From Aliarcobacter sp. (lineage in GTDB: Bacteria; Campylobacterota; Campylobacteria; Campylobacterales; Arcobacteraceae): 64,000 bases of DNA. Position 1 is the stretch's first letter; each line of letters starts with the position of its first letter. A program made the translations under genes and the position numbers. Location of the stretch: positions 35,636-99,635 of the forward strand of contig JAQTXB010000004.1 of the NCBI GenBank assembly GCA_028688995.1, written 5' to 3'. This document shows positions 3 through 42,283 of the stretch, piece by piece. The notes under the pieces were generated by a model. That model had not been told where the DNA came from. It searched no databases and saw only the letters and a program-made list of their open reading frames with translations.

Positions 3-809
3 ATTGTAAGAAGTCAAAATATTTTGGGAAATGAAGATGAAGAAATAGCTTCAATATTTAAAAAAGAATTTTCTCAAAAAGTTGATATTGAGTTTGATAC
101 AAGTGTAAAAGATGTAGAGTATAAAAATGAACAGTTTTATATGGTTTTAGAAAATCAAGATGATAAAAAAATAGAACATCAAAGTGAAGCTTTACTTTAT
201 GCAATTGGTAGAGAATCAAACACAGATAGTTTAAATCTTGAAAATACTTCAATTCAAATCAATGAAAGAGGTTATATAAAAAGAGATGAGTTTTTTGAAA
301 CCACTGCAAAAGGTGTTTATGTGGTTGGTGATGCAGCTGGAGTTTATATGCTTCAACATGCAGCTGCTTATGAGGTAAATCATTTAGGAAAAATTTTATT
401 AGAAGATTGCAAGATACCTTTAAAATTTAAGTATATGCCCCACGGAGTTTTTACAGAACCAGAAATTGCAAGTGTGGGAATTACTGAACAAGAAGCTAAA
501 AAACAAAATATAGAGTGTGTAATAACAACTACAACTTGGCTAGCAAGTGCAAAAGCCATGTCTACAAGACTGAAATATCCAGTTACAAAATTTATAGTTA
601 ATCCAAAAAATTATGAAATTTTAGGTTGCCATATGATTGGTCCTGAAAGTTCAACAATGATACATCAAGTATTAGCAGTGATGCATATAAACAATGATAT
701 AAGACATTTAAAAGAGATGTTATATATTCATCCAGCAATGAGTGAAGCAATACTTCCAGCAGCAGTAGAGAGTGTAAAAGAGATTGAAAAATATGAATCA
801 AAAAAATAA
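3..809 (+). CDS. Pyridine nucleotide-disulfide oxidoreductase (dihydrolipoamide dehydrogenase/mycothione reductase-like), 5'-truncated by the window edge
   Basis: Frame is open from position 3; second FAD motif TTAKGVYVVGDAAG, VFTEPEIASVG and the C-terminal HPxxSE motif (YIHPAMSE). Confidence 0.85.
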   Translation: MVRSQNILGNEDEEIASIFKKEFSQKVDIEFDTSVKDVEYKNEQFYMVLENQDDKKIEHQSEALLYAIGRESNTDSLNLENTSIQINERGYIKRDEFFETTAKGVYVVGDAAGVYMLQHAAAYEVNHLGKILLEDCKIPLKFKYMPHGVFTEPEIASVGITEQEAKKQNIECVITTTTWLASAKAMSTRLKYPVTKFIVNPKNYEILGCHMIGPESSTMIHQVLAVMHINNDIRHLKEMLYIHPAMSEAILPAAVESVKEIEKYESKK

Positions 810-864
810 TGCTAAAAAATAGAATATTAATAATAAATAAAATTCATAATCAATTAACAATAAA

Positions 865-878
865 TGTATTATCATTAA
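865..878. promoter_or_regulatory. Weak copy of the TGAAT-N4-ATTCA palindrome upstream of tetR (possible autoregulatory site)
   Basis: TGTATTATCATTAA, 11/14 match to TGAATAATCATTCA, 12 bp before the SD. Confidence 0.3.
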
Positions 879-901
879 GAAATATTTTTTAAGGATAAAA
901 C

Positions 902-1495
902 ATTTCTACTACTAAAGAAAATAAAAAAAATAACATCATTCAAAATGCTTTAAAACTTTTTTCACAAAAAGGTTTTTATAACACTACAATCCCAGATATT
1001 GCAAAAGCCATGAGCATGAGTGTTGGAAATATGTATAACTATTTCTCTTCAAAAGAAGAACTTGCAAAATTTGCTATAAAATACTCTACAAATATAATAG
1101 CTGATGAGTTAAGAGAAATAAATAATATGGATCTAACATCAAAAGAAAAAATATATCTATTTGTACGAAAATATTTAGAAAATGTTCAAAAATCACCTGA
1201 AGTGATTGAGTATTTTTTAAGGGTTTATTTATCAAATAGAGAAGTATTCAAACAAGGTTGTGAAGGCTTTTTATGTGTTGGAGAGTTTGTTACTGAAGTT
1301 ATGATTTTACTTGATGATGGTGCTAGTAAAAAAGAGTTTAGAGAACAAGAATTTTTTCCTGCTTTTGGGATGATAATGGGATGTTTAGGTGGTTTTGCAT
1401 TTTTAAGCGGAGAGAGTGTTTTAGATAAAGAGTTGCTCTCTTATTCAGATGCAGTTGCAGAAAATATATATCGTGCTTTGAAGTATGATAACTAA
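902..1495 (+). CDS. TetR/AcrR family transcriptional regulator, probable ATT start (ORF track starts at 1010, inside the HTH)
   Basis: In-frame KKNNIIQNALKLFSQKGFYNTTIPDIAKAMSMSVGNMYNYFSSKEEL is a complete TetR HTH; SD AAGGA at 891-895; in-frame TAA at 896-898; no ATG/GTG/TTG between 902 and 1010. Confidence 0.9.
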   Translation: MSTTKENKKNNIIQNALKLFSQKGFYNTTIPDIAKAMSMSVGNMYNYFSSKEELAKFAIKYSTNIIADELREINNMDLTSKEKIYLFVRKYLENVQKSPEVIEYFLRVYLSNREVFKQGCEGFLCVGEFVTEVMILLDDGASKKEFREQEFFPAFGMIMGCLGGFAFLSGESVLDKELLSYSDAVAENIYRALKYDN

Positions 1496-2378
1496 AAAAA
1501 AACCAACTGTTGTATGGTTCCAAGCAATCACTTGTAATGGAAATACCCATTCACTATTAAGTGCTAACTCAAATAGATTTGAACTTTTTTTAAATAGTTT
1601 TGATTTTATATATCATCCAAGTTTGACTATTGATAAATCACTTGAAGATATACTAAATCAGAAAGAAAAAATAGACTTTTTATTAATTGAGGGTTCTATC
1701 TCTTCTAATAAAGATATATTCACAATTTGTGAAGATTCAACTTTTAATCACTTAAATCAATTAGCATCAAACGCAAATTATATTATTGCTATTGGTTCTT
1801 GTGCTTCTTATGGTGGAATTCATGCTAAATTTACTCAAAATAGTGATATAAGTGGCATAAATGATGCTATAAATGAAGAAATTCTTAAAAATCTAAAACA
1901 TCAAATCATAAATCTTACTGGTTGTCCAGTTCATCCTGAATGGATTTTACAAACTTTATTTACTCTAAAAACTTATGGACAAATAGCTTTAGATGAAATA
2001 GGGCGACCAAAGGAACTTTATAGCACTTTAGCCCATCATGGATGTACAAGAAATGAGTATTTTGAGTGGAAAGTTGAGGGTGATTTTGGACAAAAAGAGG
2101 GATGTCTTTTTTATGACCAAGGGTGTCGTGGTCCTATGACCCATAGCTCTTGCAATAAAATCTTATGGAATGATATTAGTTCAAAAACAAGAGTGGGAAT
2201 GCCTTGTGTTGGATGTACAGAAGTTGATTTCCCACGAAATGATATGTTAGAAACTAAAAAAAACATAGGAATTCCTTTTGAAGTTCCTTTAGGAATTTCA
2301 AAAAGAGCATATTTAAGTATAAGTGGAGTTGCAAAAACTTTTAAAATAGATAGACTTCATAAAAAATTAATGGAATAA
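1485..2378 (+). CDS. Cytoplasmic [NiFe]-hydrogenase small subunit, group 2d-like (no Tat signal)
   Basis: WFQAITCNGN, AIGSCASYGG, GCPVHP, HGCTRNEYF, GCLFYDQGCRGP, CVGC Fe-S motifs; no RRxFxK; no membrane anchor. Confidence 0.88.
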   Translation: MITKKKPTVVWFQAITCNGNTHSLLSANSNRFELFLNSFDFIYHPSLTIDKSLEDILNQKEKIDFLLIEGSISSNKDIFTICEDSTFNHLNQLASNANYIIAIGSCASYGGIHAKFTQNSDISGINDAINEEILKNLKHQIINLTGCPVHPEWILQTLFTLKTYGQIALDEIGRPKELYSTLAHHGCTRNEYFEWKVEGDFGQKEGCLFYDQGCRGPMTHSSCNKILWNDISSKTRVGMPCVGCTEVDFPRNDMLETKKNIGIPFEVPLGISKRAYLSISGVAKTFKIDRLHKKLME

Positions 2379-2380
2379 AA

Positions 2381-3736
2381 GTGAAAACAATAGACTTAGT
2401 GGAAAGAATTGAAGGTGAAGCAAAACTTCATTGTACTTGGGAAAATGAAAAAGTAAAAGATGCTAGAATTGATTTTTTAAATTTTAGAGGTTTTGAGTAC
2501 ATTTTAGAAGGAAAATCGCCTTTGGATGCTTTAGTTTATACTCCAAGAATTTGTGGAATTTGTGGACAAGCTCACTTAAAAGCTTGTGTTGAAGCTTTGG
2601 AAAATATTTATGAAAATATAAACGAAAAACTACAAATTACACAAAAAGCAAAACTTTTAAGGGAAATTGGTTTAAACATCGAGATAATTGATTCCCATAT
2701 AAAATGGTTTTATATGTTTATTTTACCTGATATTATAAAACTAAACTCTAATGATTTGGGAATTTATACTCCATTAAAAGGCACACGATGGATGGAAGCT
2801 CAAAAAAGTGCTAGTGAAACCATAAAAGCTCTAGCAGTGATTGGTGGACAATGGCCACACACTTCATATATGATTCCAGGTGGAGTTATGAGTGATCCTA
2901 CAAAACTTGACTTAATTATGATGCAAAACTATCTTCAAACTGCAATTAGTTTTTTTGAAAATTCAATAAGTGGAGTTTCTTTAGAGAATTATCTAGCTTT
3001 TGATAGTGTTGATAATTTGGAAAATTTAAATGGTGATTTGAGATATTTTAAAGATTTATCTTTTAAATATTCTTTAGAAAAGTATGGAAAATCTTATGAT
3101 AGATTTATAACGTTAGCAGAATCAACTCTATTTAAAAGTGGAAAAATAAAACAAAGATTGGTTCATAAATTGGATTTTTCAAAAATAGTTGAAGATAATA
3201 GTTCTACTTTTTCTATAAATAAAGAAGAGAATAATACAAAAAAACATACTTGGTCAAAATCTGTATCTTATGATGAACATTTTTTTGAAACTGGACCACT
3301 TGCAAGGGCGATTATTTCAAATAGAAAATTCATCAAAGATATTCATAAATCTTTTGAAGATTCATCATTTACTAGAATTCTCTCAAGAATTGATGAAATG
3401 GCACATCTACTTTTCGAAACTAATAATTTGATTTCTCAAATTGATATTTTAGAACTTTCATATATCAAACCAAAAATTTCTTTAAAAGATATAGTTGATG
3501 CAAAGGGTATGTCAGTTGTTGAAGCTTGTCGAGGTTCTTTATTACATAATATTACTATTGAAAAAGGTTTAATAAAATCTTATGATGTGATAACTCCAAC
3601 AGTTTGGAACTTAGGCCCACAAAATAAAACTCAAAAAGGAATAGCTCAAAAGGCAATTATTGGCTCACCAAATATTGAAATTGCTAAAATTGTTTTAAGA
3701 AGTTTTGATGTTTGTTCTGTTTGTACAACTCATTAA
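2381..3736 (+). CDS. Cytoplasmic [NiFe]-hydrogenase large subunit, group 2d-like, no C-terminal extension
   Basis: RIEGE, L1 PRICGICG, EACRGSLLH, L2 RSFDVCSVCTTH ending directly at the stop; GTG start. Confidence 0.9.
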   Translation: MKTIDLVERIEGEAKLHCTWENEKVKDARIDFLNFRGFEYILEGKSPLDALVYTPRICGICGQAHLKACVEALENIYENINEKLQITQKAKLLREIGLNIEIIDSHIKWFYMFILPDIIKLNSNDLGIYTPLKGTRWMEAQKSASETIKALAVIGGQWPHTSYMIPGGVMSDPTKLDLIMMQNYLQTAISFFENSISGVSLENYLAFDSVDNLENLNGDLRYFKDLSFKYSLEKYGKSYDRFITLAESTLFKSGKIKQRLVHKLDFSKIVEDNSSTFSINKEENNTKKHTWSKSVSYDEHFFETGPLARAIISNRKFIKDIHKSFEDSSFTRILSRIDEMAHLLFETNNLISQIDILELSYIKPKISLKDIVDAKGMSVVEACRGSLLHNITIEKGLIKSYDVITPTVWNLGPQNKTQKGIAQKAIIGSPNIEIAKIVLRSFDVCSVCTTH

Positions 3737-3750
3737 TGAATAATCATTCA
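3737..3750. promoter_or_regulatory. Palindromic operator candidate in the hydA upstream region
   Basis: (A)TGAATAATCATTCA(T); weaker copies at 3937-3950 and 3959-3972. Confidence 0.55.
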
Positions 3751-3802
3751 TAAAAAAGTGTATATAAGTAACAAGTTTAAAAAAATATTAGATTAATATC
3801 TT

Positions 3803-3829
3803 CTTAGGTAATTTTAGAACAAAAATTAT
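3803..3829 (+). promoter_or_regulatory. Asymmetric 27-bp box upstream of hydA, followed by a -10 (TAAAAT 3840-3845)
   Basis: CTTAGGTAATTTTAGAACAAAAATTAT is 26/27 identical to the reverse complement of 39687-39713. Confidence 0.65.
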
Positions 3830-3991
3830 TTAACCACCATAAAATCATTGAATAAAATCTTTTTTATAAAAATATGAGCATAAATGCTATCTTAAAGCTA
3901 TTTTAGGGCATTTTAAATTAAGTGAATAATAAGTTTTGAATTGTTATTTTACAATAAGTAAATGAACATTCATTTTTAAGGAGTAAGAGGT

Positions 3992-5227
3992 ATGATTGAT
4001 TCGCAAGATATGGTAAAAAAAGTTTTTACCCAAAAATCAGGGAAAGTGGAAACAAATAAGGGTGAAGAGTATTATAACTCATTATTTGAAAAAGTAAAAG
4101 ACCGTTTATCAATGTTAAAAGCGCAACCAGCACTTAAAGATATTGATATGATGGATGTAATAGAGAGTGAAGGTGTAAATAGAAGAGATTTCTTAAAGTG
4201 GGTTAGTGCTACAACTGCTACACTTATGTTACCTCCTATGTTTGCTCCATTAGTTGCTGAAGCTACTGAACTTATGAATAGAGTTCCAGTTATTTGGATT
4301 GAATTACAAGATTGTGCTGGAAATTCTGAAGCACTTTTAAGAAGTTCAGCTCCAACAGTTGACGACTTATTATTTGATGTTTTAAGTTTAGAGTACCATG
4401 AAACTTTACAAGCTTGTGCTGGACATGATGCTGATAAACAATTAGAAGAAGCAGTTGAGCATTTTAAAGGTAAATATTTACTTTTTGTTGAAGGTGCAAT
4501 TCCAATGGCTATGAATGGCCAATATGGAACAATTGGTGCTATGGGTGAAACATTCCATGATCATCTTGTAAGAATGGCAAAAGATTCAGCTGCTGTTGTA
4601 GCTGTTGGAACTTGTGCTACATTTGGTGGGATTCCAGCTGCTGCTCCAAATCCAACTGGTGCTGTTGGAGTTATGGATATAGTAAAAGGTAAACCAATTA
4701 TCAATATTCCAGCATGTCCTGCAAATCCTGCAAATATGGTTGGAGTTGTTTTACATTATGTTTTAACTGGTCAAATTCCAGAACTTGATTCACTTTTAAG
4801 ACCAAAATTTGCATTTGGTTATAGAATCCATGATAATTGTGAGAGAAGAGCTCACTTTGATGCTGGTGAATTCGTAGAAGAGTGGGGAGATGAAGGGGCT
4901 AAAAACAACTTCTGTTTATATAAAGTTGGTTGTAAAGGTCCAATGACATTTAATAACTGCTCAATTATTAGATATAACGAAGGTACTAACTGGCCAATTG
5001 GTGTAGGACGAGGATGTATTGGATGTTCTGAGCCACAATTCTGGGATAAATATGCTTATGAAAGACCAATGGCAGATGCAAAAATCAAAGCACCAACTGG
5101 TGGAGTTGAAAAAACTGTAGATGAGTTTGGTTTAGGATTATTAACAGCGACAGCTATTGGTATAGGAGTTCATGCAGTGGCATCAGCAGTTGCAGGAAAA
5201 AAATCAAATGAAGGGGAAGATAAATAA
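3992..5227 (+). CDS. hydA: Membrane-bound H2-uptake [NiFe]-hydrogenase small subunit (group 1b-like), Tat-exported, C-terminal anchor
   Basis: NRRDFLKW Tat motif at residues 63-70; ELQDCAGNSE; CPANP; CERRAHF; CLYKVGCKGP; GCIGC; C-terminal TM helix. Confidence 0.95.
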   Translation: MIDSQDMVKKVFTQKSGKVETNKGEEYYNSLFEKVKDRLSMLKAQPALKDIDMMDVIESEGVNRRDFLKWVSATTATLMLPPMFAPLVAEATELMNRVPVIWIELQDCAGNSEALLRSSAPTVDDLLFDVLSLEYHETLQACAGHDADKQLEEAVEHFKGKYLLFVEGAIPMAMNGQYGTIGAMGETFHDHLVRMAKDSAAVVAVGTCATFGGIPAAAPNPTGAVGVMDIVKGKPIINIPACPANPANMVGVVLHYVLTGQIPELDSLLRPKFAFGYRIHDNCERRAHFDAGEFVEEWGDEGAKNNFCLYKVGCKGPMTFNNCSIIRYNEGTNWPIGVGRGCIGCSEPQFWDKYAYERPMADAKIKAPTGGVEKTVDEFGLGLLTATAIGIGVHAVASAVAGKKSNEGEDK

Positions 5228-6969
5228 TGGCAAATAAACACTTAGTAATTGATCCAATTACAAGAATTGAAGGACATCTTAGAATTGAAGCAATTATAGA
5301 TGAAAACAATACTGTAGTAGATGCTTATTCTTCATCAACAATGTTTAGAGGGATTGAAGAGATTTTAAAAGGAAGAGACCCAAGAGATTGTGGTCTATTA
5401 GCAATGAGAATTTGTGGAGTTTGTACAGGAACTCACTATCAAAGAAGTATTGAAGCAGTTGAACATGCGTTTAAAATTACTATTCCTAAAAATGCAAGAT
5501 TAGTAAGAAACCTTATTCAAGGTGCTTTATATGTACATGACCATATTGTTCATTTCTATCATTTACATGCACTTGACTGGGTTGATATTACAGAAGCTTT
5601 AAAAGCTGATCCAAAAGCAACAGTTGCAGAAGCTCAAAAATGGGCAGCAGTTTCAGGTCACAGACCATGGAATGCAACAGAAGATGTTTATGCACAAGTT
5701 CAAGAAAGAGTAACAAGATATGTAAAACAAGGAAGACTTGGAATCTTTGGAAACGCATATTGGGGAAGTAAAGGATTTAAACTAACTCCTGAGCAAAACT
5801 TAATTGGACTTTCTCACTATTTAGATGCTTTAGAATTACAAAGAGATTTAGCAAAAATGATGGCTATTTTTGGTGGAAAAAATCCACATCCACAATCATT
5901 TGTTGTAGGTGGAGTAACTTGTGTTCAAGATATTAAAAATCCTGCAAGAATTGCTGAATTTAAGCAAATTCTAAAAAGAGGTCAAAAATTCACTAAAGAA
6001 GCATATTTACCAGATGTTTATATGGCTGGAACAATGTATGCTGGTGAAGCATTAGAAGGAATTGGTGGTGGTTTAGGAAACTATATGTGTTATGGAGACT
6101 TTAGACTTGATGATACACCATTCTATGAAGCAGCAAAATTATTCCCATCAGGAATTGTAAAAAACAAAGATTTATCAAAAGTATTTGATATTGACCAAAC
6201 AAAAATTACAGAAGATGTTACTCATGCTTGGTATGAAGGTAATACAAATTTACATCCATTTGAAGGTGTTACTAAACCTGCATATACTGGTTTTGGTAAA
6301 AAAGAAGACAATATTGCTTATCTTGATACAACTAAAAAATATTCTTGGATTAAATCTCCATTATATGATGACGAAAGAATGGAAGTTGGACCACTAGCTA
6401 GAATGATAGTAGGTGTTGCACGTGGTGATGAGAGAATTTCTAAATATGTAACAACATTCTTAAAAAACGGAAACTTACCAACAGCTGTATTATTTTCAAC
6501 AGTTGGTAGAACTGCAGCTCGTGCAATTGAAACAGAACTTATGGTTGATGTTATGATGGAATGGGTTGATGAATTAGCTTCAAATGTAGCCCATGGAGAT
6601 TTATCAACATGGACTGAATTTAATTTTGAGAATGTTTCAAAAGAGGCTCAAGGTTATGGAATGGCTGAAGCTCCAAGAGGTGGTTTAGGACATTGGATTA
6701 AAATCAAAGATGGAAAAGTAATAAATTATCAAGCGGTAGTTCCATCAACTTGGAATGCAGCTCCAAGAGATTATAAAGGAAGAATGGGTGCTTATGAATC
6801 AGCATTAATTGGTACAAAAGTAGCAAATGTGGATCAACCACTTGAGATTTTAAGAACAATCCATAGTTTTGACCCTTGTATTGCTTGTGCTGTACATATT
6901 GTTGACACAAAAGGTAAAGAATTAGGTGTTTATAAAGTAGATCCAATTGGAGGAACAAGCCGTGCCTAA
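5227..6969 (+). CDS. hydB: [NiFe]-hydrogenase large subunit
   Basis: DPITRIEGH, L1 RICGVC, L2 DPCIACAVH followed by a cleavable C-terminal extension. Confidence 0.97.
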   Translation: MANKHLVIDPITRIEGHLRIEAIIDENNTVVDAYSSSTMFRGIEEILKGRDPRDCGLLAMRICGVCTGTHYQRSIEAVEHAFKITIPKNARLVRNLIQGALYVHDHIVHFYHLHALDWVDITEALKADPKATVAEAQKWAAVSGHRPWNATEDVYAQVQERVTRYVKQGRLGIFGNAYWGSKGFKLTPEQNLIGLSHYLDALELQRDLAKMMAIFGGKNPHPQSFVVGGVTCVQDIKNPARIAEFKQILKRGQKFTKEAYLPDVYMAGTMYAGEALEGIGGGLGNYMCYGDFRLDDTPFYEAAKLFPSGIVKNKDLSKVFDIDQTKITEDVTHAWYEGNTNLHPFEGVTKPAYTGFGKKEDNIAYLDTTKKYSWIKSPLYDDERMEVGPLARMIVGVARGDERISKYVTTFLKNGNLPTAVLFSTVGRTAARAIETELMVDVMMEWVDELASNVAHGDLSTWTEFNFENVSKEAQGYGMAEAPRGGLGHWIKIKDGKVINYQAVVPSTWNAAPRDYKGRMGAYESALIGTKVANVDQPLEILRTIHSFDPCIACAVHIVDTKGKELGVYKVDPIGGTSRA

Positions 6970-7666
6970 CATTAAAGAGGTTAAAAGAATGACAGGAACT
7001 ATGCGAATCATACATTGGGCTAATGCTATATGTATGGTAGTTGCTGTTATAACCGGTTTATATATAGGTCACCCTTATTACCAATCATTTATTGCTGATC
7101 CTGCTGTGGATAAGTATGTAATGGCATGGAATAGATGGGGGCATTTTATAGTTGCAATTATCTTTGATGTAACTGCTGTAATAATTGGTTATTTATATTT
7201 CTTTTCAAGATTTGAAAAACCATATAAAAAACTAATACCAACTATAAAAAATATAGTTGAATTTTGTGAAGTATTCTTAAATCTAATTACTTTTAATAGA
7301 AGAAAGAAATTTGATTCATCACATAGTGATAGTTATAATATTGTATTTTTCACAATATTCCATCTATTATTAATATTTATGTTATTTACTGGACTTCAAC
7401 TTTATGTTCATGGTTTAGCATCAGGTGAGAGTTCTATTGGATCTTGGTGGCCTTGGATGCTTCACTTTACAACTGATTGGACTTTAAATGTATTTGGTGG
7501 AAATATGGGTGTTAGAATTGCTCATCATACATCAATGTATTTAATTCTAGTTTGGGTAATGTGTCATATTTATTATCAAATCTGGAGAACAATCTTCTGG
7601 AAAGAGGGTGACATTGCTATTGTCATTGGCGGAAGTAAGTTTGTAAGAGAAGAAGAAAAAAAATAG
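6947..7666 (+). CDS. hydC: Hydrogenase cytochrome b subunit
   Basis: RIIHWANA, RWGHF, RIAHH His ligands in TM helices; follows hydB. Confidence 0.93.
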   Translation: MEEQAVPNIKEVKRMTGTMRIIHWANAICMVVAVITGLYIGHPYYQSFIADPAVDKYVMAWNRWGHFIVAIIFDVTAVIIGYLYFFSRFEKPYKKLIPTIKNIVEFCEVFLNLITFNRRKKFDSSHSDSYNIVFFTIFHLLLIFMLFTGLQLYVHGLASGESSIGSWWPWMLHFTTDWTLNVFGGNMGVRIAHHTSMYLILVWVMCHIYYQIWRTIFWKEGDIAIVIGGSKFVREEEKK

Positions 7667-7711: not shown

Positions 7712-8305
7712 ATGAAAAAAAGAAATATTGTAATTGGTGTTGGAAATATGCTTTTTAAAGATGAAGGTATTGGTATTTACGCTTCTGAGTATATTAGTCA
7801 AAATTACGAGTTCGATGATAAAGATTTAGAGATAATTGATGGTGGGACATTAGGGTTTAAACTAATGGCATATTTTCAAGAGTATGACAATGTTATTATT
7901 TTAGATACTGTGTCTATTGAAGATGAGATAGGAGGAATTTATAGACTTCCATCTGATGTACTTTTAGGATTAGGAAACTACAGAAAAACAGCCCATGAGG
8001 TTGAAATTGTAGAGATGTTAGAAATAGTTTCTGTTTTAGATTCTCATGCAAATGTAACAATAATAGGGATAATTCCAAAAGATATTGAAAGTGTTCAAAT
8101 AGGGCTTACAAATGAGATGGAAGATAAATTTGAAGAGTTTATTTTAAATGGTATAAAAGAGATAGAAAGTCTTGGAATTAAAGCTACAAAAGTAAATGAT
8201 ATAAAAATTAGTGATGTAGTAAAAAGCATGATAGGAAGTTATAATGGTGAACATTTAACAAGAATCCCAAATGAAGAAGATTTTACCCATGCAATTAATT
8301 TATAA
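7712..8305 (+). CDS. hydD: Hydrogenase maturation endopeptidase
   Basis: IGVGNMLFKDEGIG, IIDGGTLG, KTAHEV motifs of the HyaD/HybD family. Confidence 0.95.
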   Translation: MKKRNIVIGVGNMLFKDEGIGIYASEYISQNYEFDDKDLEIIDGGTLGFKLMAYFQEYDNVIILDTVSIEDEIGGIYRLPSDVLLGLGNYRKTAHEVEIVEMLEIVSVLDSHANVTIIGIIPKDIESVQIGLTNEMEDKFEEFILNGIKEIESLGIKATKVNDIKISDVVKSMIGSYNGEHLTRIPNEEDFTHAINL

Positions 8306-9821
8306 AATAGAATTTAACACTACAAATCTATATTTTAAACACATTATTGAAAGTTTAATAACAGAGGCTAAAATAAAAGCCACTTGCAAACAATATAATG
8401 GTTTTATACTAATTATTGTAGATGCTCTTGCTCAAGAGATAGAAGATTTTTTTGCTTTGTTAGAAAGAAAATTACCACTTAGTATTTTTATAGGTAAATC
8501 TTACGTTGTAGAAACTTATGATGAAACTTTAAAAGAAGTAGAAGATTTTGATATAAAACAGAATTTAACAATTCTTACAAATGATGTAATAAAGAATATA
8601 ATAGAAGAGAATCATATAGATTTTTTAAATGATATTGTAAAAATTACAAAAGGTGGAGTTTCAAGATTTGAAACACAAAATGGTTTAAAAGACTATTTTT
8701 TACCAAATAAAAATATTAGAGAAGATTTTGAGAATAAAGGTTTTGAGGTAAAACTATTAATTACTGATATTACAAAAGTAGAAGAAACTTTTGATATAAA
8801 TATGAAAGATTATCAACTACTTTGCTCAATTGAGAGACCTTTAGTAAAATTAAAATTTAAAATATTAAAAAATGCAAATAAAGAGTATTCATCTACAAAT
8901 TTTATTTATGCAAAAATTCCTGATGATAAACAAGTGGTTTTATTTGCAAAAGCTTTAAAAGATAATGGAATAAATCAAGTTTTATATGTTAATGATGAAG
9001 TTTATCAAGATGGATTAAAAATTACATATTTTAAAGAACAAAATCTAATTATTCATGGAGATAAAGGTTTATTTCCAAAATATGATTTTGTAGCAAACAA
9101 AAAATACAACTCTTCAAAAGATTATTTTGATGATAATGGTGGAGTTTTTAAAGCAGTTTTAGCTCAAAATGCAAAAAGATTAGTTACATCAATTGGAGTT
9201 TACTTTTCTCAAAATTCTCACAAAAGTTCAATTGCAGTGAATATCCCAACAAAGGGAATAAAAGATATTATCTCTATTCCAAATATTCACAATAGTATAA
9301 AAAATTGCTTTGAAGAGATTGCAGATATTGATGAACATTGTGCAAGATTAATTGCAAATTATTCTAAAAAATTTCCAACTGTATTAGAAGGTGATGTTCC
9401 ACAAGATACAAATGGTTTTGAGTCAATCATAAATATGTGTGCAAAAGTTTTAGGGGTAAATAGTTCAAAAGAGTTTGAAGATTTAGCTTTAAATGCAAAT
9501 TTAACAAGTGGTATTCAAATTGATATGAAACTTGTAAGTTTAGATGGAGTAAACTATTTGGACTATAGAAGAACGGTTCAATCAATAATGGCATATAAAA
9601 TGGCAGATGTTGATAATATAACTTTGATTTACTCTTTTTATGAAAGTTTGAGTGAATTTATTTGTAACTATGTAAATGAAATAGCAAATGATACAAAAAC
9701 AAATGATATTGTTTTATGTGGAAATATGTTTGCAAATTCAATTTTATTATCTAAAACAAATAAAACGCTTAGTAAAACTTATAATATCATTCTACCTAGA
9801 GAGTATCCTTTAGATTATTAA
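8271..9821 (+). CDS. hydE: HydE-type hydrogenase accessory protein (start may be 8289)
   Basis: Position after hydD as in Campylobacterota hyd operons; C-terminus IVLCGNMFANSILL resembles HypF IVLGGGVFQNRTLL. Confidence 0.75.
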   Translation: MKKILPMQLIYKIEFNTTNLYFKHIIESLITEAKIKATCKQYNGFILIIVDALAQEIEDFFALLERKLPLSIFIGKSYVVETYDETLKEVEDFDIKQNLTILTNDVIKNIIEENHIDFLNDIVKITKGGVSRFETQNGLKDYFLPNKNIREDFENKGFEVKLLITDITKVEETFDINMKDYQLLCSIERPLVKLKFKILKNANKEYSSTNFIYAKIPDDKQVVLFAKALKDNGINQVLYVNDEVYQDGLKITYFKEQNLIIHGDKGLFPKYDFVANKKYNSSKDYFDDNGGVFKAVLAQNAKRLVTSIGVYFSQNSHKSSIAVNIPTKGIKDIISIPNIHNSIKNCFEEIADIDEHCARLIANYSKKFPTVLEGDVPQDTNGFESIINMCAKVLGVNSSKEFEDLALNANLTSGIQIDMKLVSLDGVNYLDYRRTVQSIMAYKMADVDNITLIYSFYESLSEFICNYVNEIANDTKTNDIVLCGNMFANSILLSKTNKTLSKTYNIILPREYPLDY

Positions 9822-9846
9822 GAAATTCTAATTTTAGAATTTCTTA
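9819..9846. terminator. AT-rich inverted repeat after hydE (terminator or operator)
   Basis: TAAGAAATTCTAA-TT-TTAGAATTTCTTA. Confidence 0.4.
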
Positions 9847-9934
9847 ACTTTATGGATAATTTTTATCTTCTAATATTATTTTTTTAGTTTTGTTGTTGTA
9901 GTATTTAGAATAAAATTCAACTAAAGGAATTGTT

Positions 9935-10816
9935 ATGGATACAATTTTTGATAAACAAAATTTGAAAAAAGCATTAATACAACAACAAAATGAAATTAAT
10001 GATCACACTATTTATAAAATTTTAGCATCATATCAAAGTGATGAAAATAATAAAAAGATATTTGAAAAAATCTCAAAAGAGGAAAAATTCCATTATGATT
10101 TTTGGGTAAAAATCACAAAACAAGAGATAAAAGCACAAAGGTTTGTGGTTTTGTGGTTTGTATTTTTAGTGAAAGTTTTTGGAACTTCTTTTGCTTTAAA
10201 ATCTTTGGAAAAAAGAGAAGCAGGCTCTGAGGAGTTTTATAAAGAACTATTTGAAATATATCCAGAAGCTCAAAGAATTTATAAACAAGAAACCGAACAT
10301 GAGTTTGAACTCATAGAAATGTTAAATGATAAAAAGCTTTTATATGCAGGTGCAATTGTACTTGGAATGAATGATGCTTTAGTAGAGTTAACAGGAACTT
10401 TAAGTGGTATTGCTTTAGCTTTTGATAAAAGTTTAGTTGTTGGATTAACAGGTCTTATTATGGGAATAGCAGCTTCATTATCAATGGCTGGTTCTGCGTA
10501 TTTTGAAGCTAAAGAAAATCCTAGTGAAGATATAAAACCTCTTACATATTCTCTTTATACAGGAGTTTCTTATATTTTAACAACTGCACTTTTAGTAGGT
10601 CCTTTTTTTATCTTTGAAACAATGGCATATTCATTAATTATGATGTTTATTTGTGCCTTTATAGCCATTCTTTCATACAACTTTTATATAAGTGTAGCAA
10701 AAGATTTAAACTTTACAACAAGGGTTATTCAAATGTCAGCAATTACTTTTGGTGTGGCTCTAATTTCATTTGGAATAGGTTATGTTGTAAAGTTTTATTT
10801 TGGGATTGAGATATAA
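9935..10816 (+). CDS. VIT1/CCC1 family transporter with N-terminal ferritin/rubrerythrin-like domain
   Basis: EKFHY and ETEHEF ExxH motifs; AIVLGMNDALVE, GLIMGIAASLSMAGSAY VIT1 motifs; several TM helices. Confidence 0.85.
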   Translation: MDTIFDKQNLKKALIQQQNEINDHTIYKILASYQSDENNKKIFEKISKEEKFHYDFWVKITKQEIKAQRFVVLWFVFLVKVFGTSFALKSLEKREAGSEEFYKELFEIYPEAQRIYKQETEHEFELIEMLNDKKLLYAGAIVLGMNDALVELTGTLSGIALAFDKSLVVGLTGLIMGIAASLSMAGSAYFEAKENPSEDIKPLTYSLYTGVSYILTTALLVGPFFIFETMAYSLIMMFICAFIAILSYNFYISVAKDLNFTTRVIQMSAITFGVALISFGIGYVVKFYFGIEI

Positions 10817-10883
10817 ATATCTTTACTAAAGGAATAATCTTTTATAATCCAAAGCAAATATATTTATTATTCTGGAAGTTTTT

Positions 10884-13127
10884 ATGAAATCATTTTTTAT
10901 TCAAGTAAAAGGCGTTGTTCAAGGTGTTGGATTTCGTCCTTTTATTTATAATCTAGCTTTAAAATATAACATAAATGGTTGGGTTAACAATGATGATAAA
11001 GGGGTGAATATTTTAATTTATTCATCTTTAAAAAACTGCCAAAATTTTTTAGAAGAACTTCAAGAAAATCCTCCAAAACTATCTTCAATAACTGACATAA
11101 AAATAGAAGAAATAATTTCTAAAGAAGAGTATAAAACCTTTGAAATAAAGCAGAGTCAAACTTCAAATAATAAATCTACAATTATCTCACCAGATGTGGG
11201 AATTTGTGATGATTGCATCAAAGATATTAATGATATGTCTAACTTTAGATACAATTATAGTTTAACAAATTGTACAAATTGTGGTCCACGGTATTCAATA
11301 ATAAAAACTGTTCCTTATGATAGAGTAAATACTTCAATGGCATCTTTTGAATTGTGTGAAGATTGTAAAAATGAGTATGAAAATCCAACAAATAGAAGAT
11401 ACCATGCACAACCAGTTGCATGCGAAAAATGTGGTCCAAATGTAACTTTGTATAACAAAAATGATGAGATTTTATCAGTAGGTATAAAAGCCATAGAAGA
11501 AGTAGCAGAATTGATTAATGAAGGTAGTATTGTAGCTATTAAAGGAATAGGTGGTTTTCATCTTATTTGCGATGCTAAAAATAGTAAAACCATAGAAGAG
11601 CTTAGAATTAAAAAGAATCGATTAAATAAGCCTTTTGCAGTTATGTTTAAAGATATAAAGGATATTAAAAATTATACAAACTTAACATTAAAAGAAGAAG
11701 AAATTTTAACTTCAAGAAATAAGCCTATTGTTCTTGTAAAAAAAAGAGAAGATTTTAAATTATCACAACTAATAGCACCAGATATTAATCATCTTGGATG
11801 CTTTATAGCTTATACACCTTTACATTACTTGCTTTTTAGATATTTGAATAATCCAATAGTTGCAACAAGTGCAAATCTAAAGGGTGAGCCAATTATTATC
11901 TCTAAGGATGAAATTCTTGGAAAACTATCAAATATAGTTGAGTTTGTTTTAGATTATAATAGAGATATTTTAAATGCAAGTGATGATTCAGTTATACAGA
12001 TTGTTAAAAATGATATTACAAAGATTAGAAATGCAAGAGGTTATGCCCCAACGGCTTTAAATTATGAAAATAAAAGTAATAAAAAGATACTTTCCCTTGG
12101 AGCTAATCAAAAATCTACTATTACTATTTATTTTGAAAATAATTTAATTTTATCTCCATATATATCAGAGTTAAACTCTTTAAAATCAATGGAATATTTT
12201 GAGAGAACTATAAATAGTTTTAAGAGATTTTATGACTTTGAACCTGATGTTATAGTTTGTGATAAACATCCAAATTATGAATCGACAAAATTTGCTTTAA
12301 AACTAAAAGAGATAAATCCAAATATAGAGTTAATTCAAATGCAACACCATTATGCTCATATTTTATCAGTGATGGCTGAGTATAAGTTAGACAAAGAGGT
12401 ATTAGCTTTTATTTTTGATGGAACTGGATATGGTGATGATGGAAATATTTGGGGTGGAGAGGTTTTTATAGCTTCAAAAAAAGAGTACAAAAGGGTTAAT
12501 CATTTTAAATATTTTAGACTTTTAGGTGGCGAAAAAGCAGTTCTTGAGCCCAAAAGAGTAGCTTTGAGTCTACTATTTGATACTTTCTCCCTTGATGAGA
12601 TTTTAACTCTTGAAATACCATGTGTAAAAGCTTTTAAAGAGAGTGAAATAAAAATGCTTCATACAATGTGGCAAAAAGGTTTAAATTCACCATTTACAAG
12701 CTCTGTAGGGCGTTTATTTGATGCTCTTGCATCATTTGCTGATATTTTGCATATTCAAAGCTATGAGGGCGAAACAGGCTTAAAAATAGAGCAAAACTAT
12801 GACAAAATTATCACTCAAAGTTACTCTTATGAAATAATCGAAAATCAAATTGATATATCACCTATGATAAAAGAGATAGTTTTAGAAAAAGATAAAAAAC
12901 AAATTTGCTCAAAATTTATAAATACTTTAGTTCAAATTATTTTAGATATTTCAAATATTCATAAAGATTTGCCAATAGTTTTAGGTGGTGGAGTTTTTCA
13001 AAATAGAACACTTCTTGAAATTTTAATTGACAAATTTCAAGAGCAGGGTAGGGAATTTTACTTTAATAAAACTATTCCATTAAATGATGGTGGAATAAGT
13101 GTAGGGCAAATTTATCACCAAATCTAA
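10884..13127 (+). CDS. hypF: Carbamoyltransferase HypF
   Basis: GVVQGVGFRPF acylphosphatase domain; CTNCGPRYS and CEKCGP Zn fingers; DKHPNY, QHHYAH, DGTGYGDDG, LNDGGISVGQ. Confidence 0.97.
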   Translation: MKSFFIQVKGVVQGVGFRPFIYNLALKYNINGWVNNDDKGVNILIYSSLKNCQNFLEELQENPPKLSSITDIKIEEIISKEEYKTFEIKQSQTSNNKSTIISPDVGICDDCIKDINDMSNFRYNYSLTNCTNCGPRYSIIKTVPYDRVNTSMASFELCEDCKNEYENPTNRRYHAQPVACEKCGPNVTLYNKNDEILSVGIKAIEEVAELINEGSIVAIKGIGGFHLICDAKNSKTIEELRIKKNRLNKPFAVMFKDIKDIKNYTNLTLKEEEILTSRNKPIVLVKKREDFKLSQLIAPDINHLGCFIAYTPLHYLLFRYLNNPIVATSANLKGEPIIISKDEILGKLSNIVEFVLDYNRDILNASDDSVIQIVKNDITKIRNARGYAPTALNYENKSNKKILSLGANQKSTITIYFENNLILSPYISELNSLKSMEYFERTINSFKRFYDFEPDVIVCDKHPNYESTKFALKLKEINPNIELIQMQHHYAHILSVMAEYKLDKEVLAFIFDGTGYGDDGNIWGGEVFIASKKEYKRVNHFKYFRLLGGEKAVLEPKRVALSLLFDTFSLDEILTLEIPCVKAFKESEIKMLHTMWQKGLNSPFTSSVGRLFDALASFADILHIQSYEGETGLKIEQNYDKIITQSYSYEIIENQIDISPMIKEIVLEKDKKQICSKFINTLVQIILDISNIHKDLPIVLGGGVFQNRTLLEILIDKFQEQGREFYFNKTIPLNDGGISVGQIYHQI

Positions 13128-31585: not shown

Positions 31586-31592
31586 ATAAAAA

Positions 31593-31606
31593 TGAATTGT
31601 TATTCA
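31593..31606. promoter_or_regulatory. TGAAT-N4-ATTCA palindrome upstream of the diguanylate cyclase
   Basis: TGAATTGTTATTCA, 46 bp before the TTG start. Confidence 0.4.
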
Positions 31607-31652
31607 TAAAGTTGATATAATTAAAAAAAGCTACAATAAAAGAGGTTTTATT

Positions 31653-39790: not shown

Positions 39791-40432
39791 ATGGAAAACA
39801 TAGGTTTATTACTAATCTTTTGGTATGGAATTTTACATGCTTTTGGAGCTGACCATTTAACAGCGATTGCAGATTTTTCAATAGGAAAAAACAAAAAGAA
39901 AACATTACTAATAACTGCAATGTTTGCAATAGGTCATGGTATTTCACTTTTTATATTTGCAAAGTTATTAGAAACTTATCATATTTCAGATGAGATATTG
40001 GGTTATGGTGATGTTATTTCAGCTTCTGTTATTTTAGGTATGGGAATATATTTACTTTTTTTAGTTTTTACAAATAGAATAAATTTAACAAAACATATTC
40101 ACCATGGAGAGGAACATATTCATATTTACTTTGGGAAAGAGCATTCACACTCTACAAAAGATATAAGTTCAGCTTTTACAATTGGAGCACTTATGGGAAT
40201 AGGTGGAGTTAGAGGAATGTTAGTTACTTTAGGACTTGTTGAAAGTTCAAGTGTTGATTTTACTATGGTTTTAGCTTTTACTGTTGGAGTTATGATTGTT
40301 TTTATGGCATTTGGTTCATTTATTTTATATATTAATAAAAACTTATTAACATCAAAACAAAATATTAGAAGAGTATTTACAGTTGCAGGTCTGATTTCAG
40401 TTGCTGTTGGAACTAACTTTTTACTTGCATAA
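39791..40432 (+). CDS. Nickel/cobalt transporter (HoxN/NixA/NicO-like)
   Basis: GILHAFGADHL, FAIGHG, His-rich loop KHIHHGEEHIH...EHSH; multiple TM helices. Confidence 0.85.
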   Translation: MENIGLLLIFWYGILHAFGADHLTAIADFSIGKNKKKTLLITAMFAIGHGISLFIFAKLLETYHISDEILGYGDVISASVILGMGIYLLFLVFTNRINLTKHIHHGEEHIHIYFGKEHSHSTKDISSAFTIGALMGIGGVRGMLVTLGLVESSSVDFTMVLAFTVGVMIVFMAFGSFILYINKNLLTSKQNIRRVFTVAGLISVAVGTNFLLA

Positions 40433-40520
40433 ATATTTTATTAGAAAGTTGCGGAGTAATAATTGCATATAAAGGCAGTTAAGAGAGTATACTCTACAAT
40501 AAACTAATAAAAGGCATATA

Positions 40521-40913
40521 ATGAAAATAGCAATTCCAGTAAAAGATGAGAATTTAACATTCTTTAGTAATGCAGGACATACTCCAAATTTTGCAATCTA
40601 TGATTTAACAGGTTCAGGAATGTTTAGATCATTTAAATTAGACTCAGTAATTAGAAATCCAAGAACAGATATAGACCATGACCATGCTGAGGAAGACCAT
40701 GCTTGTGACCACGGACATGATGATGAAGAACATATTGCAGAACATAATAAAATGGGTGTGGCTTTAAGTGAATGTAGTTACATTGTAGTTAAAAAAGCTT
40801 GTAAAAACACAGCAAACTCATTTACTTCACAAGGTATAAAACTTGTAAAATATAATGGTGAAGCATTAGATGTAAATGCAATATTAAAAGAGACATCAGC
40901 TTCGTTTAAATAA
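40521..40913 (+). CDS. NifB/NifX-fold protein with a His/Asp-rich insertion
   Basis: MKIAIPV...NAGHTPNFAIYD N-terminus; DIDHDHAEEDHACDHGHDDEEHIAEH. Confidence 0.75.
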   Translation: MKIAIPVKDENLTFFSNAGHTPNFAIYDLTGSGMFRSFKLDSVIRNPRTDIDHDHAEEDHACDHGHDDEEHIAEHNKMGVALSECSYIVVKKACKNTANSFTSQGIKLVKYNGEALDVNAILKETSASFK

Positions 40914-40943: not shown

Positions 40944-40996
40944 CTGCAAATTAATATTATAGGACATTTAGACTTTTTGAGTTAAACTATTTAAAA

Positions 40997-41010
40997 TGAA
41001 TAATTATTCA
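40997..41010. promoter_or_regulatory. Perfect palindromic operator candidate upstream of hypB
   Basis: TGAATAATTATTCA, flanked by an outer AAACTATTT/AAATAGTTT inverted repeat. Confidence 0.6.
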
Positions 41011-41042
41011 CAAAAATAGTTTAAAACAAAAAGGAAAAAAAT

Positions 41043-41867
41043 ATGTGTAAAGATTGCGGTTGTACAATAGCAGGACAAGAACACCATCACCATCATCATC
41101 ACGATGACCATGAACATGGAATTGTTCATGACCATGACCATCCACATGACCATACAACTTGGAGCTCATCTCACCAAGCAGCTCATGAAACTTTAAATCA
41201 TAATCCCCAATTAAACGATGCAAAAACAATCTCTGTAATCAAAAAAATTCTTGATAAAAATGACCATGAAGCTTCACACAATAGAGCTCATTTTGATTCA
41301 CACAAAGTTTTAGGAATAAATCTAATGTCAAGCCCTGGAAGTGGAAAAACTACACTTTTAGAAAATATCGCTGATATGGTAAATTTCAAATTCGCAGTTG
41401 TTGAAGGTGACTTAGAAACTTCAAGGGATGCTGATAGATTAAAAGCAAAGGGAATTGAAGCTGTTCAAATCCAAACAGGAAGTGCATGTCACTTGGATGC
41501 GTTTATGGTTCATAAAGGTTTACATGATATTAACCTTGACAATATTGATGTTTGTTTTGTGGAAAATGTTGGAAATCTTGTATGTCCTGCTTCTTATGAT
41601 GTTGGAACTCACTTAAATATTGTTTTAGTTTCTGTTCCTGAAGGAGAAGATAAGATTGCTAAATATCCAGTAATGTTTAGATGTGCTGATTTAATTCTTA
41701 TTACTAAAACAGATTTACTTCCATATTTTGAATATGATATTGAAAAAGAGAAGATGGAAGCTAGAAAACTAAAACCAAATGTTGATATTTTAGAAGTAAA
41801 TGTAAAAGATAAACAATCACTTCAAAATGTAGTTGATTGGATTAATTTCAAAAGAAAGATGAGATGA
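41043..41867 (+). CDS. hypB: Hydrogenase nickel-insertion GTPase HypB with His-rich N-terminus
   Basis: MCKDCGC; poly-His; SSPGSGKTT; GSACH; ENVGNLVCP; TKTD. Confidence 0.96.
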   Translation: MCKDCGCTIAGQEHHHHHHHDDHEHGIVHDHDHPHDHTTWSSSHQAAHETLNHNPQLNDAKTISVIKKILDKNDHEASHNRAHFDSHKVLGINLMSSPGSGKTTLLENIADMVNFKFAVVEGDLETSRDADRLKAKGIEAVQIQTGSACHLDAFMVHKGLHDINLDNIDVCFVENVGNLVCPASYDVGTHLNIVLVSVPEGEDKIAKYPVMFRCADLILITKTDLLPYFEYDIEKEKMEARKLKPNVDILEVNVKDKQSLQNVVDWINFKRKMR

Positions 41868-41974
41868 TATTTGTAAAATCAATTTCATTCATTTAGGCTT
41901 CATGGTGGGTACTCAAAAATCAAAGATTTTTACCCTTCCGTTGCAGAATCATTCATAAAATTGTTTTACAAATA
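41868..41974. other. Long imperfect intergenic stem-loop between hypB and hypC
   Basis: TATTTGTAAAA(T)CAATTT pairs with AAATTGTTTTACAAATA; inner GGGTA/TACCC and AAAATC-AAA-GATTTT. Confidence 0.5.
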
Positions 41975-41997
41975 ATAGATTAAAAAGGAAAAATTGT

Positions 41998-42279
41998 ATG
42001 TGCTTATCAATACCATCAAAAATAAAAAGTATAGACCCTGAAATGAACACTTGTGTAGTTGACACAATGGGAGTTGAAAGAAGTGCTAGTTTAGATTTAA
42101 TAGACCAAGATGTAGTAGTTGGAGATTATGTTTTAATTCATATTGGATTTGCTATGAATAAGATTGATGAAGAGGATGCTTTAGAATCACTCAAAGTCTA
42201 TGCTGAAATTATAGAAAAGATGGAAGAAAATGACCGTTTAACAGCTATTGAAGAAGCTGAAAATTGTCCAAATAGATAA
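41998..42279 (+). CDS. hypC: Hydrogenase maturation chaperone HypC
   Basis: MCLSIPSK; GDYVLIHIGFA. Confidence 0.96.
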   Translation: MCLSIPSKIKSIDPEMNTCVVDTMGVERSASLDLIDQDVVVGDYVLIHIGFAMNKIDEEDALESLKVYAEIIEKMEENDRLTAIEEAENCPNR

Positions 42280-42283
42280 TATC

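Follow-up and report, generated by a model that had tools for sequence, protein, structure and literature searches.

A FadR-like TetR protein encoded with a probable group 2d [NiFe] hydrogenase as predicted repressor of uptake hydrogenase genes in Campylobacterota and Aquificota

A 64 000-nt stretch of Aliarcobacter sp. DNA (contig JAQTXB010000004.1, positions 35 636 to 99 635; hereafter the window) encodes a TetR-family regulator resembling Bacillus FadR (below simply TetR), the small (huaS) and large (huaL) subunits of a cytoplasmic [NiFe] hydrogenase (together HuaSL, or Hua), and a membrane-bound uptake hydrogenase, hydABC. Comparative analysis of these genes indicates that TetR very probably represses the hyd and hyp genes through a palindromic operator placed before hydA and hypB. 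To the whole model, in which HuaSL provides the H2 or redox input of TetR, we give about an even chance. Earlier papers already report the gene order and raise a regulatory function for group 2d hydrogenases, to which Hua is provisionally assigned. In the literature that we searched, none describes the operator, the regulon, the strict co-occurrence or a TetR–Hua signalling model.

The genes tetR (902–1495, + strand; 197 aa), huaS (1485–2378, +; 297 aa; Pfam) and huaL (2381–3736, +; 451 aa; Pfam and open reading frame (ORF) reading) form a tight operon. The original prediction, made from the sequence alone, had noted that tetR and huaS overlap by 11 nt and that 2 nt separate the huaS stop from the huaL start (GTG at 2381), and both are read in the sequence. 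It described correctly a HuaS with neither a twin-arginine translocation (Tat) leader, the first cluster cysteine being residue 17, nor a C-terminal anchor; HydA has the Tat motif RRDFLK and a transmembrane tail. HuaL has, as proposed, no cleavable extension, since its stop (TAA, 3734–3736) directly follows DVCSVCTTH, whereas HydB runs on 21 residues past the equivalent His. The absence of an adjacent histidine kinase or NtrC-type gene also holds, with none found within 14 kb among ORF translations and Pfam matches, as does the position of tetR–huaSL directly upstream of hydABC (3992–7666, +; Pfam and NCBIfam), the predicted regulated target, which is a Tat-exported membrane-bound uptake hydrogenase with a cytochrome b. 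Its first gene begins 255 nt past huaL. Hua and Hyd are the only two [NiFe] hydrogenases in the whole genome.

In almost every locus of both phyla the huaL–hydA spacer holds a palindrome with the consensus TAATGAATGATCATTCATTA, usually 25–50 nt 5′ of the hydA start codon. A 20-nt position weight matrix (PWM) was built from the hydA-upstream sites and used to scan the 2.95-Mb genome; its four best sites are two at hydA, one at hypB and one at a DASS-family transporter. Three of these lie in the window as predicted TetR operators (no strand assigned). Box 1, TAATGAATAATCATTCATAA (3734–3753), is the best site in the genome (score 21.6) and overlaps the huaL stop. Box 2, AAGTAAATGAACATTCATTT (3956–3975), is third best (19.7) and ends 16 nt 5′ of the hydA ATG. 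Box 3, AAATGAATAATTATTCACAA (40994–41013), is fourth best (19.6) and stands 30 nt 5′ of the hypB ATG. By eye, a candidate −10 hexamer of the hydA promoter, TACAAT, may be read at 3950–3955 (+); box 2 begins 5 nt past it and ends 2 nt before the hydA Shine–Dalgarno sequence (3978–3983). In Persephonella and an Aquificales metagenome-assembled genome (MAG) the boxes overlap TTGACA-N17 promoter-like elements, again read by eye. Such placement over the putative hydA promoter is typical of repression. The core TGAAT-N4-ATTCA occurs four times in the window (G+C ~27%) against 0.55 expected. The published operator of Bacillus halodurans FadR, GATGAATGAATACTCATTCAT (PMC5397183), and the hydA box agree in their half-sites, ATGAAT/ATTCAT, which ties the box to a FadR-like TetR.

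In 1.03 Mb of related loci the PWM gives 89 sites with a score of 15 or more, and for 75 of them a hydA gene begins within the next 400 nt. Among these hydA genes are those of a second uptake-hydrogenase operon in several Arcobacteraceae and of a group-1 hydA-like operon in an Aquificaceae genome, whose HydA is 41% identical and has a CTCC proximal motif. At a score of at least 14 a hydA box is present in 51 of 58 TetR-positive loci and in none of 20 TetR-negative genomes (Fisher p = 4e-13); the 51 of 58 is partly circular, the PWM having been trained on hydA-upstream sites, but the TetR-negative controls and the hypB set escape this circularity. In the 500 nt 5′ of hydA, genomes without TetR score 7.8 at best (median of their best scores 2.1), and for loci with TetR the median is 20.0. 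Four of the 20 TetR-negative genomes are of the same genus, with HydA 85–89% identical. At hypB, whose upstream regions lay outside the PWM training, the box is found in 12 of 25 TetR-positive and 0 of 10 TetR-negative genomes (p = 0.007). Control of hyd and hyp genes by TetR, as the original prediction had it, is thereby backed by comparative evidence: a FadR-like palindrome on the hydA promoter and before hypB, top scores in the genome, and absence in TetR-negative relatives.

The box is rare upstream of tetR itself. Only two of the 89 strong sites are found there. In about 80% of the regions 5′ of tetR no box reaches a score of 8 (the best in the window is 4.7), and a de novo search for enriched palindromes in 68 tetR upstream regions gave nothing universal. 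A ATGAAnnTTCAT palindrome at −67 to −71 of tetR was considered as operator and rejected, as it occurs in some Arcobacteraceae only and the signal lies instead upstream of hydA. Nor does a box precede the stand-alone huaSL of Aquificaceae. We read this as Hua being probably co-expressed with TetR rather than regulated by it, an arrangement that, by analogy, matches sensor–transducer operons. The rarity of boxes upstream of tetR argues against TetR mainly repressing hupSL, as had been put forward for Sulfurospirillum multivorans (PMC5357620).

Other sites and repeats were noted beside these boxes. The second-best site of the genome (21.3; C22:162095, on another contig) lies 87 nt 5′ of the DASS-family (Na_sulph_symp) transporter gene, and a further box (16.3) at 31590–31609 lies about 60 nt 5′ of a 621-aa ORF at 31653; both genes are possible extra members of the predicted regulon. 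Box 3 lies within a longer inverted repeat (40985–41022), AAACTATTT...AAATAGTTT. About 100 nt 5′ of hydA there is a near-direct repeat, TGCTATCTTAAAGCTA ([A/T]GCTA-N6-[A/T]GCTA; 3885–3900), of a type that recurs in the spacers of TetR-positive Arcobacteraceae and is found upstream of hydA in none of six TetR-negative Arcobacteraceae, four of them from the same genus. A second regulator may bind there.

The gene neighbourhood that the original prediction singled out is far from local. Mapping by tblastn of some 70 loci gave the order tetR-huaS-huaL-hydA-hydB-hydC-hydD-hydE-hypF almost throughout Campylobacterota and Aquificota. With about 130 genomes from two phyla showing the arrangement, chance does not account for it. 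HuaL was found in 70 of 401 Campylobacterota genomes (31 of 63 genera). All 70 carry TetR and, in each of the 69 besides the window's own, it is encoded directly 5′ of hua on the same strand. A close TetR orthologue, defined at E <= 1e-25, was found in 77 of the 401. Most of the seven that thus seemed to have TetR only were set aside, because five have diverged huaSL (33–37% identity, below the E-value cut) and genome G269 has a TetR fragment with a stop and was left out. The 121 Aquificota genomes comprise 55 with both, 7 with TetR only, none with Hua only and 59 with neither. Hua without TetR therefore occurs in none of 125 genomes (70 Campylobacterota and 55 Aquificota). Physical linkage cannot wholly explain this pairing, because in at least seven Aquificota genomes (e.g. 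G431, G438, G441 and G418) tetR and hua are on different contigs or 190–735 kb apart. Neither is it a simple by-product of H2 oxidation, since hydA is still present in 38 of 40 TetR-negative Campylobacterota genomes.

In an alignment-based scan of public genomes, TetR orthologues of 51–98% identity came from Campylobacterota and Aquificota (Persephonella, Hydrogenothermaceae, Aquificaceae), with a sharp fall below 51% to generic TetRs matching in the N-terminal domain only. Aquificaceae have a hypB-tetR operon beside a group-1 hydrogenase, with huaSL standing alone. Some loci depart further from the common order. An Aquificaceae MAG (L047:70-3526) has hypB-tetR, a GGDEF protein gene, a box and then hydA of a CTCC, O2-tolerant-like type; the GGDEF protein, a Cys-rich diguanylate cyclase, is in the slot that huaSL occupies elsewhere. 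In another locus (L014:6754-11686, genome G297) tetR-huaSL and a box (19.6) are followed by a Tat-dependent psrABC-like molybdoenzyme operon in place of hydABC. Several genomes (G415, G274, G296 and G005) have tetR copies with in-frame stops; G415 combines a pseudogenised tetR with the absence of huaL, which suggests joint decay of the two.

An in-frame TAA (896–898) bounds the tetR reading frame on its 5′ side, and ATT at 902 is the sole start that retains the helix-turn-helix (HTH) domain; the first ATG, at 1010, would remove 36 residues. A Shine–Dalgarno sequence, AAGGA, is read at 891–895 (+), 6 nt 5′ of the ATT, and NCBI-annotated 197-aa orthologues begin at the equivalent position (MSTTKEN...). 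Start codons of tetR in Arcobacteraceae loci are mostly weak (ATT, ATA, TTG or GTG in 10 of 11; ATG is also used), and all of these starts (window 891–904; L004-L009, L024-L028) are preceded by a good Shine–Dalgarno sequence. By codon, the 11 orthologues were scored as ATT (4), ATA (2), TTG (4), GTG (1) and ATG (1), to which the window's own tetR adds a fifth ATT. The weak starts look selected, and they fit a low-level regulatory operon.

The HTH is matched by Pfam TetR_N (PF00440; E 1e-14, residues 12–55). The AF2 model (mean predicted local distance difference test score 89.8) is all-helical, with nine helices. Its best Foldseek match is Bacillus subtilis FadR (3WHB), and the FadRs of B. subtilis and B. 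halodurans align at TM-scores of 0.80–0.84 and about 20% identity. FadR is also the second-best NCBIfam match, at 43 bits against a cut-off of 200. TetR therefore scores below the FadR equivalog level, which implies an acyl-CoA effector and a fatty-acid regulon, and its predicted regulon is hyd and hyp. Acyl-CoA was considered as effector by analogy with FadR and rejected, as gene context gives it no support. Nickel sensing, raised by the hypB-tetR operons of Aquificaceae, was ranked low, TetR having no conserved His or typical Ni ligands. A GCEGxxC motif with Cys120 and Cys125 (a CxxxxC loop) is invariant in a first TetR alignment and at least 90% conserved in a second (40 sequences, one of them a paralogue). 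The pair sits in a 15-residue loop (112–126) between helices 99–111 and 127–142, the least confident part of the model. In the alignments the C-terminal (effector or sensor) domain is conserved to the same degree as the HTH. Mean pairwise identity over the 48 loci holding all five proteins is 62% for TetR, 51% for HuaS, 45% for HuaL and 66% for each of HydA and HydB, so TetR is better conserved than the hydrogenase beside it.

HuaL matches PF00374, and HuaS matches PF01058 (Oxidored_q6) and PF14720 (NiFe_hyd_SSU_C). Both CxxC pairs that bind the [NiFe] site are present in HuaL (L1, RICGIC; L2, DVCSVC). All of 61 HuaL orthologues stop at the last residue of DxCxxCxx[H/Q/K]; with no C-terminal extension, no endopeptidase is needed. 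At the proximal cluster 62 of 66 HuaS orthologues have CxGN in place of CxxC (CNGN in the window). The nearest solved structure for both subunits is the group 2a enzyme Huc (7UTD; E 1e-54 and 4e-46), and the cysteine pattern of HuaS is that of HucS up to the distal cluster. The HuaS C-terminal tail (271–297) is as conserved as the cluster-binding regions (conservation 0.71) and could be a docking surface. CxGN, where standard enzymes have CxGC, is found also in HydA of the window (4295–4310, as against 1530–1545 in huaS) and in 41 of 60 HydA of related loci, and many of these bacteria may thus have a three-Cys proximal site in their respiratory hydrogenase.

Ile and Phe at the gas-channel bottleneck are a signature of the O2-insensitive H2 sensors, or regulatory hydrogenases (PMC11023054). 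The residue after the G of RxCGxC (the V74 position) is Ile in 63 of 63 HuaL (Ile60 in the window) as against Val in 60 of 60 HydB, and the L122 position is Phe in the window (Phe113) and its clade. Hua thus shares with group 2b sensors the lack of a large-subunit extension and, at the bottleneck, Ile throughout and Phe in its own clade only. Membership of group 2b was nevertheless rejected. The L1 motif of that group ends in Gln (RICGICSVSQ, or RICGICSxSQ; PMC6501319), whereas the last L1 residue is His in 60 of 62 HuaL orthologues (RICGICGQAH in the window), and where the small subunit of that group has CGGC, HuaS has CxGN. Orthologues at 41–46% identity occur in Aquificaceae and Hydrogenothermaceae, and close relatives from Aliarcobacter butzleri and Sulfurospirillum have been placed in group 2d in print (PMC12286921). 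By this orthology and by synteny Hua is provisionally assigned to the group 2d family, an indirect placement.

The original prediction called the function of group 2d enzymes unresolved. This still stands, although a regulatory role had already been suggested, in a work that also describes Aquifex hydrogenase (Hase) III as hard to detect (PMC10052474), and a TetR gene 5′ of hupSL (SMUL_1421-1422) had been noted in S. multivorans (PMC5357620). Genome papers on vent epsilonproteobacteria label the enzyme ‘H2-sensing (Group 2)’ and name no partner (PMC2628731). Proteomes of Sulfurospirillum lacked HupSL (PMC6242987). S. multivorans hardly transcribes hupL and expresses hydABC constitutively (PMC5357620), a pattern that would fit lost repression when the tetR operon is silent. 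In A. butzleri, which carries the module, H2 raises both hynAB operons 2.3–6.2-fold (PMC12286921), and this fits the model given below.

In the model that we propose, TetR would be a FadR-like dimeric repressor binding the palindrome TGAATGAnnATTCATT. Its boxes, overlapping the predicted hydA transcription start and 5′ untranslated region and preceding hypB, would keep the uptake hydrogenase and the maturation genes off. HuaSL would be a scarce [NiFe] hydrogenase of the cytoplasm, with no Tat signal and no need of a protease, and would be produced together with TetR. When H2 is present, reduced HuaSL would alter the state of TetR, and the repressor would leave the DNA. The route of the signal is a guess; the Cys120/Cys125 loop seems the likeliest, by thiol/disulfide chemistry or by a Cys-ligated metal or Fe–S site in the dimer, and a bound redox cofactor would be another. 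A one-step H2 sensor of this kind, in which the redox state of HuaSL passes directly to TetR by the Cys120/Cys125 loop or a cofactor there, with no kinase, we put at somewhat under even. The logic would be like that of HoxBC-HoxJ-HoxA or HupUV-HupT-HupR, except that a lone one-component repressor would stand in for the two-component relay.

TetR paralogues, 47–54% identical, occur in a few genomes; they retain the EYFLRVYLSNRE core, and their Cys pair is shifted (FCEDEDCGF) or absent. These adjoin yedF-selD and a molybdenum/tungsten ATP-binding cassette transporter, modE-modA, nrdDG (the anaerobic ribonucleotide reductase), or a psrABC-like operon or group-4 hydrogenase (L131, L132, L134, L135 and L137). 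The box in their promoters is strong at modE/modA and nrdDG and weak (~15) at psr and the group-4 hydrogenase; for the yedF-selD paralogue one of two loci has a weak box (15.2). From these contexts the TetR subfamily therefore appears to govern oxygen-sensitive or trace-metal-dependent respiratory functions.

The paralogues are also the main evidence for a different account, in which TetR acts alone: it would detect the redox or O2 state by thiols or Fe–S, or would bind a small ligand in a pocket like that of FadR, and would repress hyd and hyp. HuaSL would then be a low-level passenger that serves metabolism, for instance by supplying reductant or poising redox. We consider this the chief alternative, though less likely than HuaSL as the input, and several observations weigh on its side or against HuaSL as the input. 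The paralogues have the same box, and no Hua close by, at loci that are oxygen-sensitive or involve metal cofactors, so the fold can probably sense something by itself, and a FadR fold normally binds a small ligand. Genome G187 (Campylobacterota) has TetR, the box and hydABC and truly no Hua, and the seven Aquificota assemblies noted above show TetR only. Campylobacterota are reported without FNR and ArcA (PMC5357620), a gap that a redox-sensing repressor would fill, and the Sulfurospirillum uptake enzyme is not H2-regulated. In A. butzleri H2 lowers huaSL (PMC12286921), a response that does not follow from the model. In the enzyme itself, the second gas-channel Phe is not kept outside Arcobacteraceae, where Thr or Val takes its place, and the three-Cys proximal cluster of HuaS, as in Huc, may hint at high-potential clusters ill-suited to disulfide reduction. 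What an autonomous TetR leaves unexplained is that not one Hua among 125 genomes, unlinked cases included, lacks TetR, and that Hua is probably co-expressed with the regulator instead of standing under its operator. It must also allow for a metabolic enzyme accompanied by no metabolic partner gene and nearly undetectable in proteomes (PMC10052474, PMC6242987). HuaSL as the input of TetR is favoured because of this strict co-occurrence, the probable co-expression and the sensor-like traits.

Two further accounts seem to us improbable. TetR might be only a local autorepressor of tetR-huaSL, as Kruse et al. 2017 proposed for hupSL of S. multivorans (PMC5357620), the hydA and hypB boxes belonging to something else, for example a metal sensor of the Fur or NikR type. 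Helicobacter hydrogenase genes are indeed under Fur and NikR (PMC6682613), and about 18–20% of tetR upstream regions do have a weak to moderate box. However, the other ~80%, the window included, have none, the box follows the presence of TetR among genomes that share hydABC, its half-sites match the operator of FadR, the closest structural relative of TetR, and the paralogous TetRs have the same box in their own promoters; we give this account little credence. Slightly less credible still is one in which HuaSL is an enzyme of energy or carbon metabolism, providing low-potential reductant for the reverse tricarboxylic acid cycle or recycling H2 internally, while TetR co-ordinates the hydrogenases to an unrelated cue, e.g. 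nickel. Older proposals, including one for Aquifex Hase III, run this way (PMC5357620, PMC2628731), and the presumed co-transcription of hypB and tetR in Aquificaceae hints at a link with nickel handling. Set against it, the module is present in heterotrophic Aliarcobacter, Hua is barely expressed (PMC10052474, PMC6242987) and is not induced by N2 fixation (PMC5357620), the three-Cys proximal site is like that of high-potential Huc and unlike that of a ferredoxin reducer, and TetR lacks the His-rich or typical ligands expected for a nickel cue.

Among known systems, the group 2b sensors of Cupriavidus necator (HoxBC-HoxJ-HoxA) and Rhodobacter capsulatus (HupUV-HupT-HupR) are like Hua in being soluble, Tat-less [NiFe] heterodimers of low abundance with no large-subunit extension and with Ile and (in Hua's clade) Phe at the bottleneck. 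They too are encoded beside the uptake hydrogenase that they presumably control and are co-transcribed with a presumed transducer. The Hua module differs in having no histidine kinase or NtrC-type activator, its sole regulator being a TetR repressor; in its L1 His and small-subunit CxGN, where group 2b has Gln and CGGC; in its phylogenetic group; and in its predicted output, which is derepression and not phosphorelay-controlled activation. Hua–TetR would thus work like the HoxBC and HupUV sensors without belonging to group 2b, and would be a case of H2 sensing by a one-component repressor. Its relatives in group 2d, Aquifex aeolicus hydrogenase III, Hydrogenobacter Hup2, S. multivorans HupSL and A. 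butzleri HuaSL, are by orthology and synteny of the same family. The orthologues in Aliarcobacter, Sulfurospirillum and Aquificaceae, at 41–92% identity, are cytoplasmic and hard to detect, and as an enzyme Hua is no different. Bacillus FadR (YsiA; PDB 3WHB and 5GPC; acyl-CoA-responsive) has the fold of TetR and nearly the same half-sites, and is a dimeric repressor acting over promoters; TetR is only ~20% identical to it, has a predicted hydrogenase regulon instead of one for fatty-acid degradation, and has the long loop 112–126 with the conserved Cys pair. Mycobacterium smegmatis Huc (group 2a, 7UTD) shares the CxGN proximal motif and the Ile of RxCGIC. Huc, however, is abundant, serves respiration and uses HucM to reduce menaquinone. 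Hua has no HucM but a partner regulator, is shorter by 60 residues and retains the distal His ligand.

The remaining features of the window are as follows. The uptake hydrogenase genes are hydA (3992–5227, +), hydB (5227–6969, +) and hydC (6947–7666, +). Downstream in the hyd cluster (7712–13127, +; Pfam, ORFs) lie the hydD protease gene (7712–8305), hydE (HypF-C-like; 8271–9821), a gene for a VIT-family protein, and hypF (10884–13127). The maturation operon hypB-hypC-hypD (41043–43408, +; Pfam cobW/HypB, HupF_HypC and HypD) is the second predicted target. Directly upstream of hypB (39791–40913) are genes for a 213-aa membrane protein without a Pfam match and for a NifX-like protein of 130 aa whose tail is rich in His and Asp (...DHDHAEEDHACDHGHDDEE); the two may take part in nickel handling. 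The first gene of the window (3–809) encodes a truncated pyridine-nucleotide disulfide oxidoreductase. An Rfam search of 700–4200 found no RNA family at E <= 0.1, and in a promoter and terminator scan of 700–4100 promoter-like matches were not commoner than in shuffles and no terminator was found.

Group 2d hydrogenases are widespread in H2-oxidising Campylobacterota and Aquificota, which dominate at vents, in sulfidic sediments and in some host-associated niches. To our knowledge, their function has been open for two decades, and we know of no H2-sensing route in either phylum. The model can be falsified, as it specifies the regulator, the consensus of its operator with three sites in this genome, the predicted target genes (hydABC and hypBCD), a candidate sensing motif, GCEGxxC, and the mutant phenotypes expected in culturable organisms. 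Should it be false as to the relay from HuaSL, the TetR subfamily would remain a candidate redox regulator of anaerobic enzymes in phyla reported to be without FNR and ArcA (PMC5357620). If the relay is true, a hydrogenase, a repressor and a 20-bp operator would make up a minimal H2 switch, far less complex than HoxBC-HoxJ-HoxA and attractive for building synthetic H2 biosensors. The one-step sensor, if true, would give a function to the entire group 2d class and would be the first instance of signalling from a hydrogenase to a one-component regulator, common to Campylobacterota of vents and sediments and to Aquificota.

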